A program made the translations under genes and the position numbers. This document shows, one piece after another, positions 3,634 through 13,586 of a stretch of 64,000 nucleotides of DNA (within the stretch, counting starts at the first letter, position 1; each line of letters begins with the position of its first letter). The notes under the pieces were generated by a model. It ran no database searches. It was not told where the DNA came from and saw nothing but the letters and a program-made list of their open reading frames with translations. The DNA comes from a virus (taxonomy: Duplodnaviria > Caudoviricetes), in the IMG/VR virus record IMGVR_UViG_3300011008_000049, positions 64,001 through 128,000 of that record, one strand, 5' to 3'.

Positions 3634-4242
3634 ATGATTGAACCAAGCAATGTCAAGCAGTTTTACGATGAAAATAAAGATAAGGTTTTCTATTACCTGA
3701 CATCCACCGTTAAGAATGTTGATAATTGCGAAATCAAAGAAGTTAAACCGGATTGTTATTATAACATGATTCTTTGGTATTATCCAAAAGATAATACTGA
3801 TGTAAAGAAGATTACAAAATTCAATGCAAGTTGGCTCAATATTTTTGAAACAAAAGAAGATGCTTGTAAAGCACTTGAATATTATAAATCTCTATATTCT
3901 GGTTTCCGGCGCATACCTTATCTATCAATTTCAACGCTAATTGACCATGCAGAAACTTTGCACAAAATAGAGAAAGCCATTGATGATGGATTAAAAGAAT
4001 TTGATAACTATGACGGCATTGACTTTGTAGATGTTTCAGCAAACGGAATTCAAATCAGACTCCATCATAAACAGATTAAGAACTATACATACGGAAATCA
4101 ATATACAATTCGATATGATTTTTCAAATGCTGACGAAGCTCCAAAAGCTGTAATCGAACATTTTAAGGAAATTGACAATCCGGCTGACGTTCAGCGTATG
4201 TTGAGATTTATAGCAGATGGAGAAAAATATGGATGGGATTAG
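3634..4242 (+). CDS. Hypothetical protein
   Basis: 202-aa ORF with GGAGG SD. Confidence 0.65.
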   Translation: MIEPSNVKQFYDENKDKVFYYLTSTVKNVDNCEIKEVKPDCYYNMILWYYPKDNTDVKKITKFNASWLNIFETKEDACKALEYYKSLYSGFRRIPYLSISTLIDHAETLHKIEKAIDDGLKEFDNYDGIDFVDVSANGIQIRLHHKQIKNYTYGNQYTIRYDFSNADEAPKAVIEHFKEIDNPADVQRMLRFIADGEKYGWD

Positions 4243-4507
4243 ATTTGTAGTTTGTCTATTTTATGGAGTTCTTCTTCTAATTCTTCCGATTGCTTGGATT
4301 ATTTCTCTTGCATGGATTCATTATCCGCAAGGAATTATCAAAATGATTAAAGAAAAGAAACTTAAACGCAAGAAGGGCAAATAATGGCATTTATTCAAAC
4401 AATAATTAACGAGATGATTTCCGGCAACTTTTCTTTTGCAATACTTATAGTTGGCATATTGCAATTGATAGTTATGATTATTGGTTTAATTCAGAAAGGA
4501 AAATCGA

Positions 4508-4780
4508 ATGGCAAAAATCATTAAACATACTTGCGCAAATTGTGAATACTACCATCCAACACTTATGGATATGGATGATGAAACTGATTATCACATTCAC
4601 GACTATTGCTCAATATGGGGTAAGCAAATTCCAGACTATATTCTTTTTGATAGAAATGGTTATGTGGAAGGCTATGGTGATATAGAATGCGGAGTTGCTT
4701 GTTGTTGGTGTTTTGAAGCAAGAAAAGATGGCAATTATAAGACACATTTCGCAGATATGAAAGACAATAAGAAAGAATAA
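4508..4780 (+). CDS. Cys-rich hypothetical protein
   Basis: 90-aa ORF with AAGGA SD. Confidence 0.55.
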   Translation: MAKIIKHTCANCEYYHPTLMDMDDETDYHIHDYCSIWGKQIPDYILFDRNGYVEGYGDIECGVACCWCFEARKDGNYKTHFADMKDNKKE

Positions 4781-4794
4781 AATAGAATTTTTAT
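4777..4794. promoter_or_regulatory. Palindrome ATAAAA-N6-TTTTAT (copy 1 of 6)
   Basis: Same arms and 6-bp spacer at 12526, 24386, 34307, 45970 and 63793. Confidence 0.6.
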
Positions 4795-4820
4795 TACATA
4801 GGTAAAGAAAGGATAACTAA

Positions 4821-5927
4821 ATGGAAAGAGAACAAAATACAGAGTATATCTTATCGCTTTCATACGGCAAAGATAGTATTGCTTGTCTTGAAGCCATTAA
4901 ACAACTCGGTTATCCATTAGATAGGATTGTCCACGCAGAAGTATGGGCTACTGATACAATTCCGGCTGATTTACCGCCAATGGTAGAGTTTAAGTCTTAT
5001 GCAGATAAGATTATAAAAGAAAGATACGGAATTGAAGTAGAGCATATTTGCGCTGTTCGGGGGTAAGAAACTTACCTACTCCAAAGAATTCTACCGAGTT
5101 GGCTCAAAGGGAAGATTCGCAGGTTACATATACGGATTCCCTTGCACTGTCAAGCCGTGGTGTAATTCAAGACTCAAAGTTGATGCACTCACAAGAATTG
5201 GAAAAGGTAACATACGAGAAACTGTTTTATCACATTCCGAAGCGCAGGAAACCCGCAGGGGGAAGAAAACAATCCAGTTGGATTCCTCCGACACGGAGCA
5301 TATTGCAATGCAACATCAGCACTCAAAACAAATCCACTCGAACAACTCAATCCTCGGATTCCCAATTCCAAGAGGAACTTGGTGCAACAGCGACCTCAAA
5401 ATTGCTGCCCTACGGATTTCCAATCTCAATCGGCAGAGGGAATTGGTGTACTCAACTCAAACAGAGAGTTTTCAAAGAGCGCCATTGCACAAGGCGCGAA
5501 GAAAAATATTGTGCAGTATCTCGGCATAGCAGCCGATGAACCTGAAAGAATAAAAAGACATTCTGTTCCTGGAAAGATTTTGCCTCTTGTAGACATCGGA
5601 TGGGATGAAGCATATTGCAGAAAATGGTGTGAAGAAAATAATCTTCTTTCCCCTATTTATACCGATTCATTAAGAGGTGGATGTTGGTTTTGCCACAATC
5701 AAGGCGTTGACCAGTTAAGATTATTGAGAAAGAATTATCCGGATTTGTGGGAACTTTTGCTCAAATGGGATAGCGATTCCCCAACAACGTTCAAATCTGA
5801 TGGTCATACTGTTCATGATTATGAAAAACGGTTTAAGGCAGAAGATGATGGTTTGGTAAAACCAGGAGATAGAAAATTCAGATGGAAACAGGTTTTAGAA
5901 GAAGATGACATACAAGGAACGATATAG
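4821..5927 (+). CDS. PAPS-reductase-family (PP-loop) protein split across reading frames, with an internal multi-frame cassette region
   Basis: N-terminal SLSYGKDS PP-loop (4821-5066); C-terminal YLGIAADEPER and RGGCWFCHNQ (to 5927); four GF..C..LK cassettes in three frames between them. Confidence 0.85.
5134..5461 (+). repeat. Four degenerate cassettes bounded by GGATT and CTCAAA
   Basis: 5134-5178, 5280-5327, 5356-5400 and 5414-5461 encode GFPCTVKPWCNSRLK, GFLRHGAYCNATSALK, GFPIPRGTWCNSDLK and GFPISIGRGNWCTQLK. Confidence 0.85.
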
Positions 5928-6075
5928 TCAATGTAATACGATTGATGAATTGAAACAGATAGCAATAAAAGATACGGAAATGGCAATATTCCTTGGCGCA
6001 AATCCTGACAGAATAAGAGCCATTGAAAACGCTATGAACGAAAGAGCAGATGAAATTGAAAAAAGCAACAGATAG
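5905..6075 (+). CDS. Small hypothetical protein (56 aa, MTYKERYSQC...)
   Basis: Short ORF that fills the gap and overlaps both neighbours; below the ORF-track cutoff. Confidence 0.5.
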   Translation: MTYKERYSQCNTIDELKQIAIKDTEMAIFLGANPDRIRAIENAMNERADEIEKSNR

Positions 6076-6544
6076 AAAAGCAATAACAAAACTATTAGCA
6101 GAACAATTAGAAAAACATATAAATCCTCATAATGATACGAGAATTTATACTGCAAAAGAAGTGACTTTCGATTATTCGACAGACCATCCTATTAGGGTTG
6201 ATTATATGGTGTTTAAGCCGGTTAATAATTCTGTTGGCGGCATTGAAAAAGGCGTTTTCTACTGTTATGAAATTAAGTCCTGCAAAGAAGATTTGTTGTC
6301 TGGTCATGGTTTGAATTTCATCGGAGATTATAACTATCTTGTTTTCAATAAAGGTATGTTCAAAGAATTGAAATCCTATGTTCCGTATGATGTAGGAGTA
6401 TATGAATTAACAGAATACGGATTGGATTGTGTAAAGAAAGCAAGATTAAAAACAAGAGAAAGAAGCGTTACAGAGATGCTTCTTATGATGTTTAGAAGCT
6501 CAAATAGAGATTTAATAAAACAAAAATTTGGAGGTAACAAATGA
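6050..6544 (+). CDS. PD-(D/E)XK-like / MmcB-like protein
   Basis: RVDY...YEIKSCKED nuclease-like motif. Confidence 0.55.
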   Translation: MKLKKATDRKAITKLLAEQLEKHINPHNDTRIYTAKEVTFDYSTDHPIRVDYMVFKPVNNSVGGIEKGVFYCYEIKSCKEDLLSGHGLNFIGDYNYLVFNKGMFKELKSYVPYDVGVYELTEYGLDCVKKARLKTRERSVTEMLLMMFRSSNRDLIKQKFGGNK

Positions 6545-7470
6545 GATTAACAAATAACTGGATTAACGGCGATTGCTTAAAGGAATTGAAGAAATTGCCG
6601 GATGAAAGTGTCCATCTCATTATTACATCTCCACCCTATCACAATTTGAGAGTTTATAGCAACGACCCATCAGACTTATCAAATTGTGAGACATATGAAG
6701 AATATTATTACTTACTTGGTCTTGTAATTGCCGAGTGCCAAAGAGTGCTTGTGCCAGGGGGGTAAGTTTGTAATCCAGTATGAGGATTATAATTACACAT
6801 TGGGTAGAGATGGTAGAAATGGACAGGAGAGTTTAACAGGAGATATTAACAAAATCTTTTCTGATAATGGTTTTTCGCTTTGGACGAAAGCATTTTGGAG
6901 AAAGTATTCCGCACAAAGAGCAATGTTGGCGCAGGGAAACCTTTATTACAGAAATATGAAAGCAAGAGACACTATCCTTGCCGCAAATGTAGGATTTGTT
7001 TATGTCTACAAGAAAGCCGGTGAACTTGAAGTAATTAAGGCATCTGATATTACTCTTGCTGAATGGGCTGATTGGGCGGATGGTATGTGGAATATTCCGA
7101 ACTCTGGAATTGGTCATACTACACCATTTGCAGAAGAACTTGTTAAGCGTTGCATTAAACTTTGGTCTTGTCCTGGTGATACTGTTTTAGACCCATTCGC
7201 AGGAGCAGGTACAGTTAATAAGGTAGCAATCGAAAATCATAGAAATGCAGTTGGTATCGAACTCAATAAAGAGTTCTATGACCTTGCAAATGAAAAGAGA
7301 TTTTCCGCATGGACTGATGCCGATTTGGAATGTGATGATTCTATTGAACAAATGAAAGAACGTTTTGCGGAGCAGTTGGCAATCGGTAAAGAACAGTCGG
7401 AAGCTGCAAAGGCTGAAAAGCAAGGAAGAAAGCCGAAAGAGAGGCAAAGAAAAATAATGATGGATGATAT
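6541..7470 (+). CDS. N4-C/N6-A DNA methyltransferase (beta class), interrupted by a +1 frameshift at G6-TAAG
   Basis: GDCL and ITSPPY in 6541-6765; HTTPF and VLDPFAGAGT in the +1 frame; the join restores LVPGGKF. 3' end approximate. Confidence 0.85.
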
Positions 7471-7732
7471 TCTTACAAGAAGCATGGTTGAATCAAAAGA
7501 AGAATGGCGAAAATGGTGTACTGAAATACCTGATTTACATTTTGATAGTGATTGGAATGTAAAAATTATTCCGCCATTTGCTGGTGCGCTTATTAGATTC
7601 ATTGTTTCTAAAAATAATAAACGAGTTTCGGTATATTTTGATGGCTATTCAAAACTCGGTTTTATGTATGATAGTAACGATAAACCAATTCCTTATTTTT
7701 TAAATGATATAAGGAAGGTTTTGGATGATTGA
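7457..7732 (+). CDS. Hypothetical protein, currently fused in frame to the MTase
   Basis: GAGG SD and ATG-ATG at 7457; IIPPFAGALIRF segment is unrelated to MTases. Confidence 0.5.
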   Translation: MMDDILTRSMVESKEEWRKWCTEIPDLHFDSDWNVKIIPPFAGALIRFIVSKNNKRVSVYFDGYSKLGFMYDSNDKPIPYFLNDIRKVLDD

Positions 7733-10833: not shown

Positions 10834-12153
10834 ATGTATTGCGCATATGTCACTACGATTAAAGAACTACGAAAGCATAGCAACGCTGATAGACTTCTTT
10901 GCGCAACGATTTTCGGCAATAACGTTATTGTCGATTTGAGTTATAAGGAAGGTCAGAAAGTTGTGTATTTCCCTGTTGACGGTCAACTCGGAGAAGAATT
11001 CGCAAAAGAAAATAATCTTGTCAGAGTCAAGGATGAGAACGGAAATAATACTGGTGGTTATCTTGACCCGGATAAGAGAAATATCAAAGCATTGAAGTTA
11101 AGAGGTGAACAGTCCGATGGGCTTGTACTCCCTATCGAAGTTTTGAGTAAATACACCGACATTGAGAAACTTACTGATGGAGAGCAAATTACTGTTCTTA
11201 ACGGATATGAGATTTGTAAAAAGTATATTCCGAAGTGCAACAGAAGCAGAAGAACTTCTACCAATGTCAGCAAAACGAGAAAGAATCACAAAGAATCCAA
11301 TCAGAAAGTTACATATCCTTTCTTTGTTGAACACATTGATACTGCGCAGCTTGCATACAACGAAAAGGCATTTAAGCCCGGAGACACTTGCTACATCACT
11401 CTAAAAATGCACGGTACTTCCGCAAGAACGATGAATGCCGTTGAGGTCACTACGAAGAAGCCAAACAGAGTATTGAAAAAGGTTTTCAAATTGAAAGACA
11501 AAACCACCAGACAATACAAGTTTGTTAGTGGTACTCGCCGGACTACATTGAGAGATTTCGGAGATGGTGGATGGTACGGCAGTAACGCCTTCAGAGAGAA
11601 GTATCATAATTTCTTCAAAGAGAGACTTCCAAAGGGCGCAGAAATCTTTTATGAGATTGTCGGTTGGGTTAGCGAAAATACAACCATCATGGGAAGATGC
11701 TCTAATAAGCTCGTCAAAGATAAAGAATTCTCCAAGCAATATGGTGACGAAACGATTTTCTCCTACGGTTGCGAACCTGGACAGAATGATTGTTATGTCT
11801 ATCGCATGACCTTGACAAATGAAGATGGCTTTGCCGTAGAAATTCCGTGGGAGCAGGTTCAGATTGAATGTGAGAAAATGGGCGTTAAGTGTGTTCCTAC
11901 TTTTGAAAAGTTTACATATACGACATGGGATGACCTGCTTGCACGTGTTGAAAAGTATTATGACGGTATTGACCCTATCGGCAAGAACCATATTCGAGAG
12001 GGGGTAGTTGTCCGTATTGACAACAGACCATCATTTACTGCATACAAGCATAAGAACTTTTATTTCAAGTGCCTTGAAGGGATTATTAAAGATACTTCTG
12101 ATGCTCCTGATATGGAAGAAGCAGAAGAATTGATTATCGAAGAAGCAAATTAA
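10834..12153 (+). CDS. ATP-dependent RNA ligase (Rnl2/DRB0094-like) with N-terminal OB-like domain
   Basis: HSNADRL N-terminus; motif I KMHGTS; YEIVG; EGVVVR; YKHKN. Confidence 0.8.
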   Translation: MYCAYVTTIKELRKHSNADRLLCATIFGNNVIVDLSYKEGQKVVYFPVDGQLGEEFAKENNLVRVKDENGNNTGGYLDPDKRNIKALKLRGEQSDGLVLPIEVLSKYTDIEKLTDGEQITVLNGYEICKKYIPKCNRSRRTSTNVSKTRKNHKESNQKVTYPFFVEHIDTAQLAYNEKAFKPGDTCYITLKMHGTSARTMNAVEVTTKKPNRVLKKVFKLKDKTTRQYKFVSGTRRTTLRDFGDGGWYGSNAFREKYHNFFKERLPKGAEIFYEIVGWVSENTTIMGRCSNKLVKDKEFSKQYGDETIFSYGCEPGQNDCYVYRMTLTNEDGFAVEIPWEQVQIECEKMGVKCVPTFEKFTYTTWDDLLARVEKYYDGIDPIGKNHIREGVVVRIDNRPSFTAYKHKNFYFKCLEGIIKDTSDAPDMEEAEELIIEEAN

Positions 12154-12168
12154 AGGAGAAATTATTCT

Positions 12169-12501
12169 ATGGCTATGACAGAAGAACAGAACACTAAATT
12201 AGAGGAACTTTTCAAAGAGAAGTTACAAGAACAGTATAATCGCGGAATCCGAGTTGGTATTCTCACGGTTAGTAAAATCGTTTCCGACAAACTGAATGAC
12301 AGTTCTATTCCGTTTGCAAAGCGAATTGATGAAGTTAAGCGTTTTTGTAAGATTGCACCTGGTATTGAGCAAAAGTTCAATGAGATTGCTGCGAAGTCAG
12401 ATGAAACCGCAGAAGTTCCGGCAGAAACCGTTGAACAGACTGATGATAGCGAAAATGCTGTAACACCAGAATCAGAACCCTCTGAACCTACCAATGATTG
12501 A
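12169..12501 (+). CDS. Hypothetical protein with acidic tail
   Basis: 110-aa ORF with AGGAG SD. Confidence 0.6.
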   Translation: MAMTEEQNTKLEELFKEKLQEQYNRGIRVGILTVSKIVSDKLNDSSIPFAKRIDEVKRFCKIAPGIEQKFNEIAAKSDETAEVPAETVEQTDDSENAVTPESEPSEPTND

Positions 12502-12566
12502 GGACTTTGTGAGACATAAATGACAATAAAAGAGCAATTTTATTTGCGGAAGTGAGGTGATAATAT

Positions 12567-13586
12567 ATGGATTACTATTCCACGACAATTAAAGGACATC
12601 CTTTATATGCAAGGAAGCATATTGATATGCCATTGTTAATTATGATGTGCGGATTGCCCGGAAGTGGTAAAAGTAGATATGCAGATAGTATCTATGTTGC
12701 TACTCCGCTTGTTGTAAAACCAATAATTCATTCTTCCGATAAATTGAGAGAAGAAATGTTTGGAAACGAAGCTACACAAGGAGATAACAACAAACTATTT
12801 TGCGAGTTACATAGAAGAATTAAAAACGATTTGCTTGATGGCAAGGATGTTATATATGATGCAACCAATATTAAGAAAAAGGAACGTGTTCAGTTTTTAT
12901 CCGAACTCCGCAATATTCGTTGCTTCCCGATTTGTGTTGTAATCGCTACCGAATATGAGGCTTGTTTATACAACAACAGAAATAGAGAAAGAGTCGTTCC
13001 GGCAGATGTAATTAAAAGAATGCAATGTAATTGGACACCACCACATTATAATGAGGGATTTGAATACATTCATTACATTTTCTCTTACATAAATGAAAGC
13101 AACGAAATCGTAACAGAACCAAAAGACAAGTATATCCTCGGTAAATTCTTTGAGATTGCAAACGATTTTGACCAGGAAAACGAACATCATGAATTGAGTC
13201 TTGGAGAGCATTGCGCGAAAGCCGGAACATACATTCAAGAGCATAGACCAAACAACTATAATCTTCTGTATGCTGCAATGCTCCATGATAATGGTAAGTT
13301 ATATACCAAAACAAGAACAAATGCCAAAGGTGAAATAGATGGTAATTGTCATTATTATCAACATCATTGTGTTGGAGCATATAACAGTATGTTCTATATG
13401 CACCGTGCCGGACATTTCACGAATGAAGATATGGTTTACATCTCAAATCTGATTTATTATCATATGCACCCATATAATCAGTGGAAACAATCAGAAAAAT
13501 CGTTGAAGCGAGATAAAGGACTTATCGGAGAAAAACTTTATAATGACATTATGGTGCTTCATCAGGCAGATTTAGAAGCACATTAA
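12567..13586 (+). CDS. Polynucleotide kinase-like P-loop domain fused to an HD phosphohydrolase
   Basis: GLPGSGKS, SSDKLR, YDATN; HH...LHDNGK...YHM...D. Confidence 0.85.
   Translation: MDYYSTTIKGHPLYARKHIDMPLLIMMCGLPGSGKSRYADSIYVATPLVVKPIIHSSDKLREEMFGNEATQGDNNKLFCELHRRIKNDLLDGKDVIYDATNIKKKERVQFLSELRNIRCFPICVVIATEYEACLYNNRNRERVVPADVIKRMQCNWTPPHYNEGFEYIHYIFSYINESNEIVTEPKDKYILGKFFEIANDFDQENEHHELSLGEHCAKAGTYIQEHRPNNYNLLYAAMLHDNGKLYTKTRTNAKGEIDGNCHYYQHHCVGAYNSMFYMHRAGHFTNEDMVYISNLIYYHMHPYNQWKQSEKSLKRDKGLIGEKLYNDIMVLHQADLEAH

Follow-up and report, generated by a model that had tools for sequence, protein, structure and literature searches.

How can one enzyme be read from a gene that lies in three pieces, with several versions of a conserved segment between its ends? 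This question is raised by the gene at positions 4821–5927 (plus strand) of a 64,000-nucleotide stretch of DNA, hereafter the window, which corresponds to positions 64,001 to 128,000 of the Caudoviricetes (Duplodnaviria) record IMGVR_UViG_3300011008_000049. The gene encodes a PP-loop ('PAPS-reductase-like') enzyme. Its N-terminal open reading frame (ORF) stops at CGG-GGG-TAA, and between this stop and the C-terminal domain lie four copies (cassettes) of a conserved GFP..WC..LK segment, which are distributed over three frames. Since the N- and C-terminal parts both occupy frame 0 (frames are numbered as coordinate modulo 3 and abbreviated f0, f1, and f2), a net shift of zero is required and not a single shift. 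Comparison with related sequences indicates that this gene is probably a contingency locus, in which changes in the length of simple-sequence repeats (SSRs) would select either an OFF state or one of several isoforms. The underlying finding is real, widespread and unusual.

Layout of the gene

The gene is organized in two tiers (Table 1). This two-tier arrangement of four cassettes, three of them intact, the OFF state caused by its two G5 tracts (G5/G5), and the presence of the junction signal can be assigned with confidence in the window. Unit 0 in the first tier is an entire extra module that was also matched by the family query, and a +1 change from the N-terminus leads into its frame. The N-terminal part matches phrog_424/15238 and shares 72–93% identity with the N-termini of 70 or more loci, and the C-terminal domain matches phrog_28782 (1.6e-27) and phrog_424 (7e-20).

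An earlier note, made from the sequence alone, had described the stop behind the first G5 tract, the second G5 tract, four cassettes and a long stretch that is free of stops in all frames. Its sequence statements on the two tracts hold, and the rule of one cassette per frame is true of the three copies after the second tract, for which it had been claimed. All four copies indeed start with GGATT and end with CTCAAA at the described motif positions, and their lengths of 45 or 48 nt are multiples of three. The count of four cassettes needs qualification, however, because the frame-0 copy c1 is degenerate: the Pro that is invariant in the family and the nearly invariant Trp are missing from it, and its spacing from Cys to LK is off. 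The same cassette is intact in L002-type relatives (examined loci are designated by L and a number). In its strict form the motif occurs three times in the six frames of the window, always within this gene, and no second copy of the gene was found in the 152.6-kb genome. The stop-free run of 316 nt was confirmed and is unique in this genome; the next-longest run measures 123 nt in the window and 162 nt on the plus strand of the genome, and none of 20000 shuffles of positions 5067–5530 reached the observed length. The local GC content is 0.43–0.47, compared to approximately 0.33 nearby.

To obtain a table of the states available to the window gene, the lengths of the two tracts (SSR1 and SSR2) were varied in silico. 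With G5 at SSR1 translation stops after 81 amino acids, whereas G4 or G7 at SSR1 combined with G6 at SSR2 gives a full-length ORF of 368–369 amino acids via c0. G6 at SSR1 joins the second LTY motif to c3 or c2 if SSR2 is G5 or G6, and leads to the route through the degenerate c1 if SSR2 is G4 or G7.

Table 1. Features of the PP-loop enzyme gene, in window positions.
Feature	Start	End	Strand	Frame	Remarks
N-terminal part	4821	5066	+	f0	81 aa; PP-loop SLSYGKDS at 4854–4877; TAA at 5064–5066
SSR1 (G5 tract)	5059	5063	+		Abuts TAA; sets frame into first tier
Unit 0	5065	5206	+	f1	LTY..FY motif at 5071–5094; cassette c0 at 5134–5178
Frame-2 path	5067	5257	+	f2	Stop-free filler; second LTY..FY motif at 5207–5230; basic tail to SSR2
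Stop-free stretch	5211	5526	+		316 nt; no stop trinucleotide in three forward frames
SSR2 (G5 tract)	5258	5262	+		Sets frame into three-cassette tier
Cassette c1	5280	5327	+	f0	Degenerate; same frame continues as unconstrained linker to C-terminal domain
Cassette c2	5356	5400	+	f1	Intact GFP..WC..LK
Cassette c3	5414	5461	+	f2	Intact GFP..WC..LK; then Q-R-V-F, Phe codon in TTTT
TTTT(C)	5469	5473	+		Proposed frame-return (slippery) site; Phe in all three frames
Hairpin	5479	5497	+		Core stem 5479–5483/5493–5497; optional A-U pairs 5485–5486/5491–5492
C-terminal domain	5490	5927	+	f0	IVQYLGIAADE..; CWFC at 5682–5693; stop at 5925–5927

Relatives, repeat length and selection in each frame

Relatives were retrieved by scanning for the C-terminal domain, which identified 236 viral contigs and 145 prokaryote genomes or metagenome-assembled genomes (MAGs); 80 of each were examined. 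The hosts named in their records are gut Clostridia (Oscillospiraceae, Ruminococcus, Faecalibacterium, and Christensenella), in whose phages and prophages the family is common. The distance between the N- and C-terminal parts falls into three classes of approximately 135–175, 260–340, and 390–460 nt, and in the two longer classes the parts stand in any relative frame. Loci with a short gap are plain ORFs with a single cassette, while those with long gaps contain two to four cassettes, which differ in frame. Of 151 loci, 81 have cassettes in more than one frame. A long repeat is present in 76 of these 81 and a TTTT at the junction to the C-terminal domain in 78, whereas 61 of the 70 other loci have neither multi-frame cassettes nor a long repeat nor TTTT, the latter being absent from 66 of the 70. 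Homologs retain multi-frame cassettes together with variable tracts, a point that the earlier note had proposed to check, and the multi-frame architecture is common to more than 80 contigs from many projects.

In the long-gap loci, the repeats at the module junctions consist of G6–G10, C8–C10 or (GA)5–17, and homologous positions carry different repeat types in different lineages. There are two layouts. In one of them the repeat follows the LTY motif and precedes three cassettes in f0, f1, and f2; in the other it is located right after the N-terminal part and precedes two whole units in f0 and f1, and f2, which lacks a cassette, is full of stops. The window gene combines both layouts in its two tiers. 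No stop interrupts a cassette-bearing frame between the repeat and the far side of the TTTT. Distinct cassette types have persisted in lineages that diverged from each other, the c3 type in many of them. A different arrangement was observed in some Oscillospiraceae MAGs (L105, L107, and L130, and also L108–L110 and L157), where two complete units follow each other in the same frame within one intact ORF. Tandem loci of the L105/L107/L130 type possess no repeat, TTTT or hairpin, and their second cassette lacks the Trp; they may have preceded the multi-frame arrangement or be a state in which it became frozen.

The family comprises 1729 representative clusters at E<=1e-3. N- or C-terminal fragments account for many of them, and among the 150 best representative proteins, too, there are many that contain only one of the two parts. 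Gene callers fragment these genes, and current databases treat the fragments as separate families. Two families of 'unknown function', phrog_28782 and phrog_15238, match the C- and N-terminal pieces, respectively, better than the full-length family does and are probably collections of gene-caller fragments from repeat-split genes.

Contigs that are 99.6–99.8% identical over 2.7–4 kb contain indels at the repeats only. Thus, L002, L003, and L005 differ by G5 versus G6 at either tract, and L013, L015, and L016 contain (AG)9, (AG)10, and (AG)8, respectively. Among the relatives, SSR1 is G5, G6, G7 or G9, and the place homologous to SSR2 is occupied by G5, G6, G7, G9, (GA)14 or (AG)4. A pattern search across collections recovered window-type contigs with the SSR1/SSR2 combinations 5/5, 5/6, 6/6, 5/7, and 7/6. 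The last of these states (G7/G6), represented by L174, creates an uninterrupted ORF of 375 amino acids that runs through unit 0 to the C-terminal domain, and a single indel, located in SSR1, separates this contig from a 98%-identical relative. All three N-frames occur at similar frequency in the three-cassette loci (5, 7, and 4 contigs), and the OFF frame is the most frequent one in the two-unit loci. The family shows two hallmarks of SSR contingency loci, a slippage-prone intragenic repeat and frame-changing length polymorphism among near-identical genomes. These comparative data bear out the earlier proposal that the G tracts select the active-site loop, since the frame follows from the length of the tract, and with it the copy that is decoded. 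For the window phage itself, exact look-ups recovered G5/G5 copies only; a stretch of 3.2 kb is 100% identical in three further independent assemblies.

Selection was assessed by sliding Nei–Gojobori estimates of the ratio of non-synonymous to synonymous changes (pN/pS) in ungapped sets of sequences. Along the cassettes, the frame with low pN/pS moves from f0 to f1, to f2 and back to f0, with values above 1 in the other frames. The ratio is 0.00 for the first cassette in f0, 0.0–0.3 for the second in f1 and 0.0–0.3 for the third in f2, and some 30 nt ahead of the C-terminal domain f0 becomes the frame with a low ratio once more. In window-type loci (set S2), it amounts to 0.27–0.5 for c2 in f1 and 0.12–0.3 for c3 in f2. 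In window-type unit 0 it is lowest in f1 (0.34–0.40), and the second LTY motif (5204–5245) has a value of 0.09 in f2. Judged by these ratios, each cassette is coding sequence under purifying selection in its own frame. The reading of the c2 and c3 DNA in f0, on the other hand, is filler according to the AlphaFold2 (AF2) model of the intact ORF of L052: the core is predicted with pLDDT values above 90, but residues 138–181, which correspond to the f0 read-through of this DNA, stay below 50–60 and appear disordered.

Proposed return to the C-terminal frame and alternative explanations

Beyond the TTTT, f0 alone runs into the C-terminal domain. The TTTT is invariant in 35 of 35 aligned junctions and usually followed by C. 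After a spacer of 6 nt comes a stem of the form GCNCC/GGN'GC; single-cassette genes possess neither TTTT nor stem. The central pair N/N' couples a non-synonymous first codon position with a synonymous third position 14 nt away and is U-A in 17, C-G in 12, A-U in 3, and G-C in 3 of the 35 distinct sequences, so that it is unpaired in none. The stem reaches a covariation score of 0.229 versus 0.093 in shuffles (0 of 500 attained it), the paired fraction falls to 35–55% in slid registers, and RNAalifold and single-sequence folding return the same stem. With its 5-bp core and 6-nt distance, this covariation-supported structure lies in the range of 5–9 nt downstream of a slippery site that is expected for −1 frameshifting.

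Frames 1 and 2 would return to frame 0 by a ribosomal shift at the TTTT, on which tRNA-Phe could re-pair perfectly from f1 (−1) and from f2 (−2), with no further 5' slip from f0. The last cassette always continues as LK-x-R-[V/C]-F with the Phe inside the TTTT, in f1 and f2 alike, and the cassette frames are open to the junction and often meet stops within a few codons after it. Four loci without TTTT (L061, L095, L120, and L124) have a second repeat, (AG)6–8 or C8, at the entry to the C-terminal domain, and in L061 and L095 the cassettes are clearly located in two frames. In L142, a c3-type cassette is found in frame 0 at −69 from the start of the C-terminal domain and leads directly into it (LK-L-F-S-E-S..); this in-frame fusion occurs naturally and corresponds to the junction expected from the proposed frameshift. 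The earlier note had suspected a third shift near 5463–5506. Its candidate TTTT (5469–5472) fits, as it stands beside the covarying hairpin, whereas the A5 and AGAGAG motifs are not conserved as shift sites.

Other ways to reach or express the C-terminal domain were rejected. No conserved start codon exists for an independent translation of this domain, and the Shine–Dalgarno-like AAGGAG of some loci coincides with the 3' arm of the stem, and its central base is not conserved but covaries. In a take-off/landing bypass between the GGG ahead of the TAA and the second G tract, the LTY motif would be left out, and the degenerate cassette would be the landing site.

We propose that SSRs, which are poly-G in the window and poly-G, poly-C or (GA)n in the relatives, serve as frame selectors. 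Slipped-strand changes in their length during replication of the phage DNA would phase the N-terminal half with one of the three frames. Each usable frame would provide its own version of the segment with the GFP..WC..LK loop, and the remaining frames of the same DNA would be kept stop-free only as unstructured filler. At SSR1, the choice would be between the extra unit (c0), the filler path, and an immediate stop, and at SSR2 between c2, c3, and the degenerate c1, which leads straight to the C-terminal domain. The hairpin, 6 nt further on, would assist tRNA-Phe in slipping on TTTT(C), by −1 if it arrives in frame 1 and by −2 if it arrives in frame 2. Phage populations would then consist of members in which the enzyme is OFF and members that make one of its several isoforms; switching within a population would be expected, and the isoforms may differ in function. 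In its complete form the proposal states that the repeat splits translation into three frames with functionally distinct cassettes and that the U tract and hairpin funnel the off-frames (−1, −2) to the shared C-terminal frame; to this we would tentatively assign somewhat less than an even chance. If it is true, a recoding signal would serve convergence rather than divergence of frames, and a nucleic-acid-modifying enzyme of a phage could change in specificity besides being present or absent.

Several observations weigh against this proposal. The window tracts are only G5, which makes them borderline repeats, and the four assemblies are identical and all OFF, so that the window copy may switch rarely or may be stably OFF; active switching is apparent in the relatives and not in the window phage. 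Several lineages are found most often in an OFF-type state, as expected of a contingency gene but also of a decaying one, and some SSR states would give rise to proteins with two cassettes. As to the return shift, the canonical heptamer G_GGU_UUU (f1) exists in many loci, which are nevertheless a subset, and is absent from the window, the stem is short (5–7 bp), and a −2 shift from f2 would be unusual.

The observations could alternatively reflect plain ON/OFF phase variation, with the enzyme made from frame 0 alone, the other cassettes representing silent donors for recombination or leftovers of non-triplet tandem duplications, and the frame 1 and 2 products being truncated and useless. This would agree with the facts that only f0 reaches the C-terminal domain without a further shift and that OFF-type states are common, and the in-frame tandem units in L105, L107, and L130 demonstrate a tendency for duplication. 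We consider it unlikely, however, because pN/pS is well below 1 for every cassette in its own frame and distinct types are kept across lineages, filler frames are stop-free solely where a cassette lies downstream, and the TTTT with its stem, or a second repeat, is placed exactly at the rejoining point and is missing from single-cassette genes. Moreover, all three N-frames are similarly frequent in three-cassette loci. A marginally smaller chance is given to multiplexing at the level of expression, where RNA polymerase or the ribosome slips on the G tracts and one genome yields all isoforms without any DNA change; in the window this would take the form of a 'shifty stop', with tRNA-Gly slipping on G5 while TAA is in the A site. 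The G5+TAA context is indeed conserved in at least four diverged lineages and identical in the four assemblies of the window phage, and a G run followed by TAA also splits a nearby methyltransferase gene at 6757–6765, where the +1 frame continues the protein. Furthermore, compensatory frameshifting on G runs and the use of three frames by G insertion are known from viruses (PMC5009743). Yet length variants are documented at the DNA level and produce an intact ORF in L174, and no conserved stimulatory element was found beside SSR1. In addition, (GA)n, which is frequent at the same sites, is not known to be a slippage site of RNA polymerases or ribosomes. Expression-level slippage could coexist with DNA slippage.

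That cassettes are chosen by DNA rearrangement, through deletion or gene conversion between the GGATT and CTCAAA boxes, is very improbable. The earlier note had considered recombination between these boxes, and the four copies with their common ends of 5–6 nt and lengths of 45 or 48 nt as well as a deletion inside the array of L100 could be taken as signs of it. Homology of just 5–6 nt is short, though, and the boxes simply correspond to codons for Gly-Phe and Leu-Lys in that motif. Near-identical contigs vary in repeat length alone and never by deletion or swap of a cassette, and rearrangement would explain neither the repeats nor the open filler frames nor the junction signal. Finally, frame breaks at homopolymers and the raised local GC content might point to an artefact, such as homopolymer errors or a strain-chimeric assembly, or to a self-splicing intron or other structured RNA. 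This explanation is effectively refuted by the comparative data: the sequence is identical in four independent assemblies, which speaks against the assembly chimera that the earlier note had named as a possible objection, the same architecture recurs in more than 80 contigs from many projects, variation at (GA)n proceeds in 2-nt steps, and each frame is under selection at the codon level. An Rfam search of positions 4000–7000 (E<=1) returned a chance snoRNA-like match only and no intron or ribozyme.

Repeat-driven phase variation is textbook knowledge in bacteria and usually operates as a two-state switch. Bacterial SSR contingency loci and phasevarions comprise Type III mod, Type I hsdS, and Campylobacter poly-G genes, with modal tract lengths of G8–G10 (PMC7383803, PMC3401435). 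They resemble the repeat-selected gene described here in that hypermutable tracts inside ORFs set the frame, near-identical genomes differ in tract length, and DNA-modification enzymes are often affected. However, they are switched ON or OFF or receive an altered terminus, whereas the window gene would swap an internal active-site segment, after which the frames rejoin. In phages, poly-G contingency loci are reported for the Campylobacter Fletchervirus group (Sorensen 2021, Cell Rep 35:109214, cited in PMC12823448), and T2 agt and T4 rIIA contain A-tract contingency loci, of which the DNA-modification gene agt is toggled to escape modification-dependent or modification-sensitive defences (bioRxiv 10.1101/2025.10.21.683753). 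The agt precedent supports the reading of the window gene as a contingency locus. These phage genes also have slippage-prone tracts that allow bet-hedging but, as portrayed in the cited sources, they rely on single ON/OFF tracts and have no multi-frame cassettes and no frame-return signal. In SSR-driven C-terminal switching in Helicobacter canadensis (PMC2823697) and Neisseria gonorrhoeae (PMC5320596), repeat length picks the peptide that follows the tract, beyond mere truncation, as in the present case; only the C-terminal tail is exchanged there, and the window gene regains a common C-terminal domain.

The P gene of bovine parainfluenza virus 3 is translated in all three frames over approximately 300 nt as a result of G insertion (PMC5009743). 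In this paramyxovirus gene, too, one N-terminal module is continued, depending on a G tract, in any of three frames through ~300 nt that contain no stop, but this is achieved by RNA polymerase slippage and results in unrelated C-termini, with no paralogous cassettes and no return to a common frame. The Helicobacter pylori futC gene reportedly combines a poly-C tract with a dnaX-like −1 frameshift cassette, and thus a hypermutable tract with a downstream translational signal able to restore the frame; it is said to give one product, to lack alternative cassettes and to use A_AAA_AAG in place of a U tract. We found no published description of an internal swap of paralogous modules with frame restoration. 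Repeat slippage would here act as a selector with three or more positions, which exchanges an internal catalytic segment while both protein ends are kept, and for this a stretch of about 300 nt readable in three frames plus a frame-restoring device are required. If the return shift is real, it would constitute a new use of programmed frameshifting and a compact natural design for obtaining several enzyme variants from one gene. Knowledge of the substrate could show how phages hedge between defences against unmodified and against modified nucleic acids.

The enzyme and its genomic surroundings

Based on its PP-loop and on the predicted structure of a relative, the enzyme is a member of the PP-loop ATP pyrophosphatase (adenine nucleotide alpha-hydrolase) superfamily, an assignment made at superfamily level only. 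The S, G, K, D, and S of the PP-loop SLSYGKDS, the motif characteristic of the superfamily, are each at least 90% conserved in 31 relatives. An AF2 model (pLDDT 92.7) of L075, a relative with a single cassette, retrieved MnmA, the [4Fe-4S] enzyme TtuA, APS/PAPS reductases, LarE, and TilS in Foldseek searches with probabilities of 0.97–1.0, E-values of ~1e-4 and TM scores of ~0.4. In contrast, no Pfam family including PF01507 was recognized at E<=0.1–1 in the window pieces, L075, L052 or L067, NCBIfam gave no family either, and the C-terminal catalytic Cys motif of PF01507 (ECG[LI]H type) is absent from the C-terminal translation and the family alignment. The name PAPS reductase is supported solely by the PP-loop fold and a PHROG label (phrog_424, 7e-20). 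A sequence search of the PDB gave chance matches only. Blastn of the gene against annotated phages found no match, and tblastn detected distant relatives only, which are mostly single ORFs labelled as hypothetical or PAPS reductase.

Invariant or nearly invariant residues are found in the PP-loop, in the cassette (G/P/W/C/L/K) and in a R.GCWFC.NQ motif. With the one from the cassette, the conserved cysteines number three and suggest an iron–sulphur (Fe-S) or catalytic site of the TtuA/APS-reductase kind, in which the Cys loop of the cassette would probably act as Fe-S or catalytic ligand. A relationship to DndC, which the earlier note had brought up, is not supported, as the NCBIfam DndC model had no match and dnd genes were not seen among the neighbours.

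Gene neighbours in the relatives encode DNA polymerase, primase, RtcB, and Erf/RecE, and those in the window methyltransferases, RNA ligase, and polynucleotide kinase. No conserved neighbours are common to the window and its closest relatives, and homologs of the methyltransferases are not linked to the gene in relatives; the context therefore gives no partner gene. Immediately upstream, the window contains a Cys-rich ORF of 90 amino acids (4508–4780) that has no family match and is not kept beside the gene in relatives. At 10834–13586, an RNA ligase (phrog_968) is located near a polynucleotide kinase/phosphatase-like gene, forming a pair of the tRNA-repair type. With such genes nearby, the PP-loop enzyme may act on RNA rather than DNA.

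The split methyltransferase gene mentioned above (6541–7732) encodes an enzyme of the N6/N4 DNA methyltransferase type and is interrupted by a G6 tract (6757–6762) followed by TAA (6763–6765). The tract stands in the same G-run+TAAG context as SSR1, and the +1 frame continues the protein (..VPGG / KFVIQ..). Judged by its sequence, the gene appears to be another case of phase variation or of a shifty stop and would be OFF in this assembly. SSR1, SSR2, and this G6 tract represent three of the five tracts of G>=5 in the window. A further cluster of seven G5–G7 tracts occupies 1.6 kb at C1:53671–55236, approximately 8.8–10.3 kb before the start of the window, in DNA that, in contrast to the present gene, has stops in all frames; since G/C>=5 tracts are not enriched genome-wide (30 seen versus ~48 expected from composition), this clustering is local. 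Flanking genes of some relatives also contain poly-G or poly-C tracts of 7–10 nt (at +1445 and +1613 from the region start in L069–L071 and at −353 in L048/L056), whose lengths vary among near-identical contigs, and several genes of these phages may be phase-variable.

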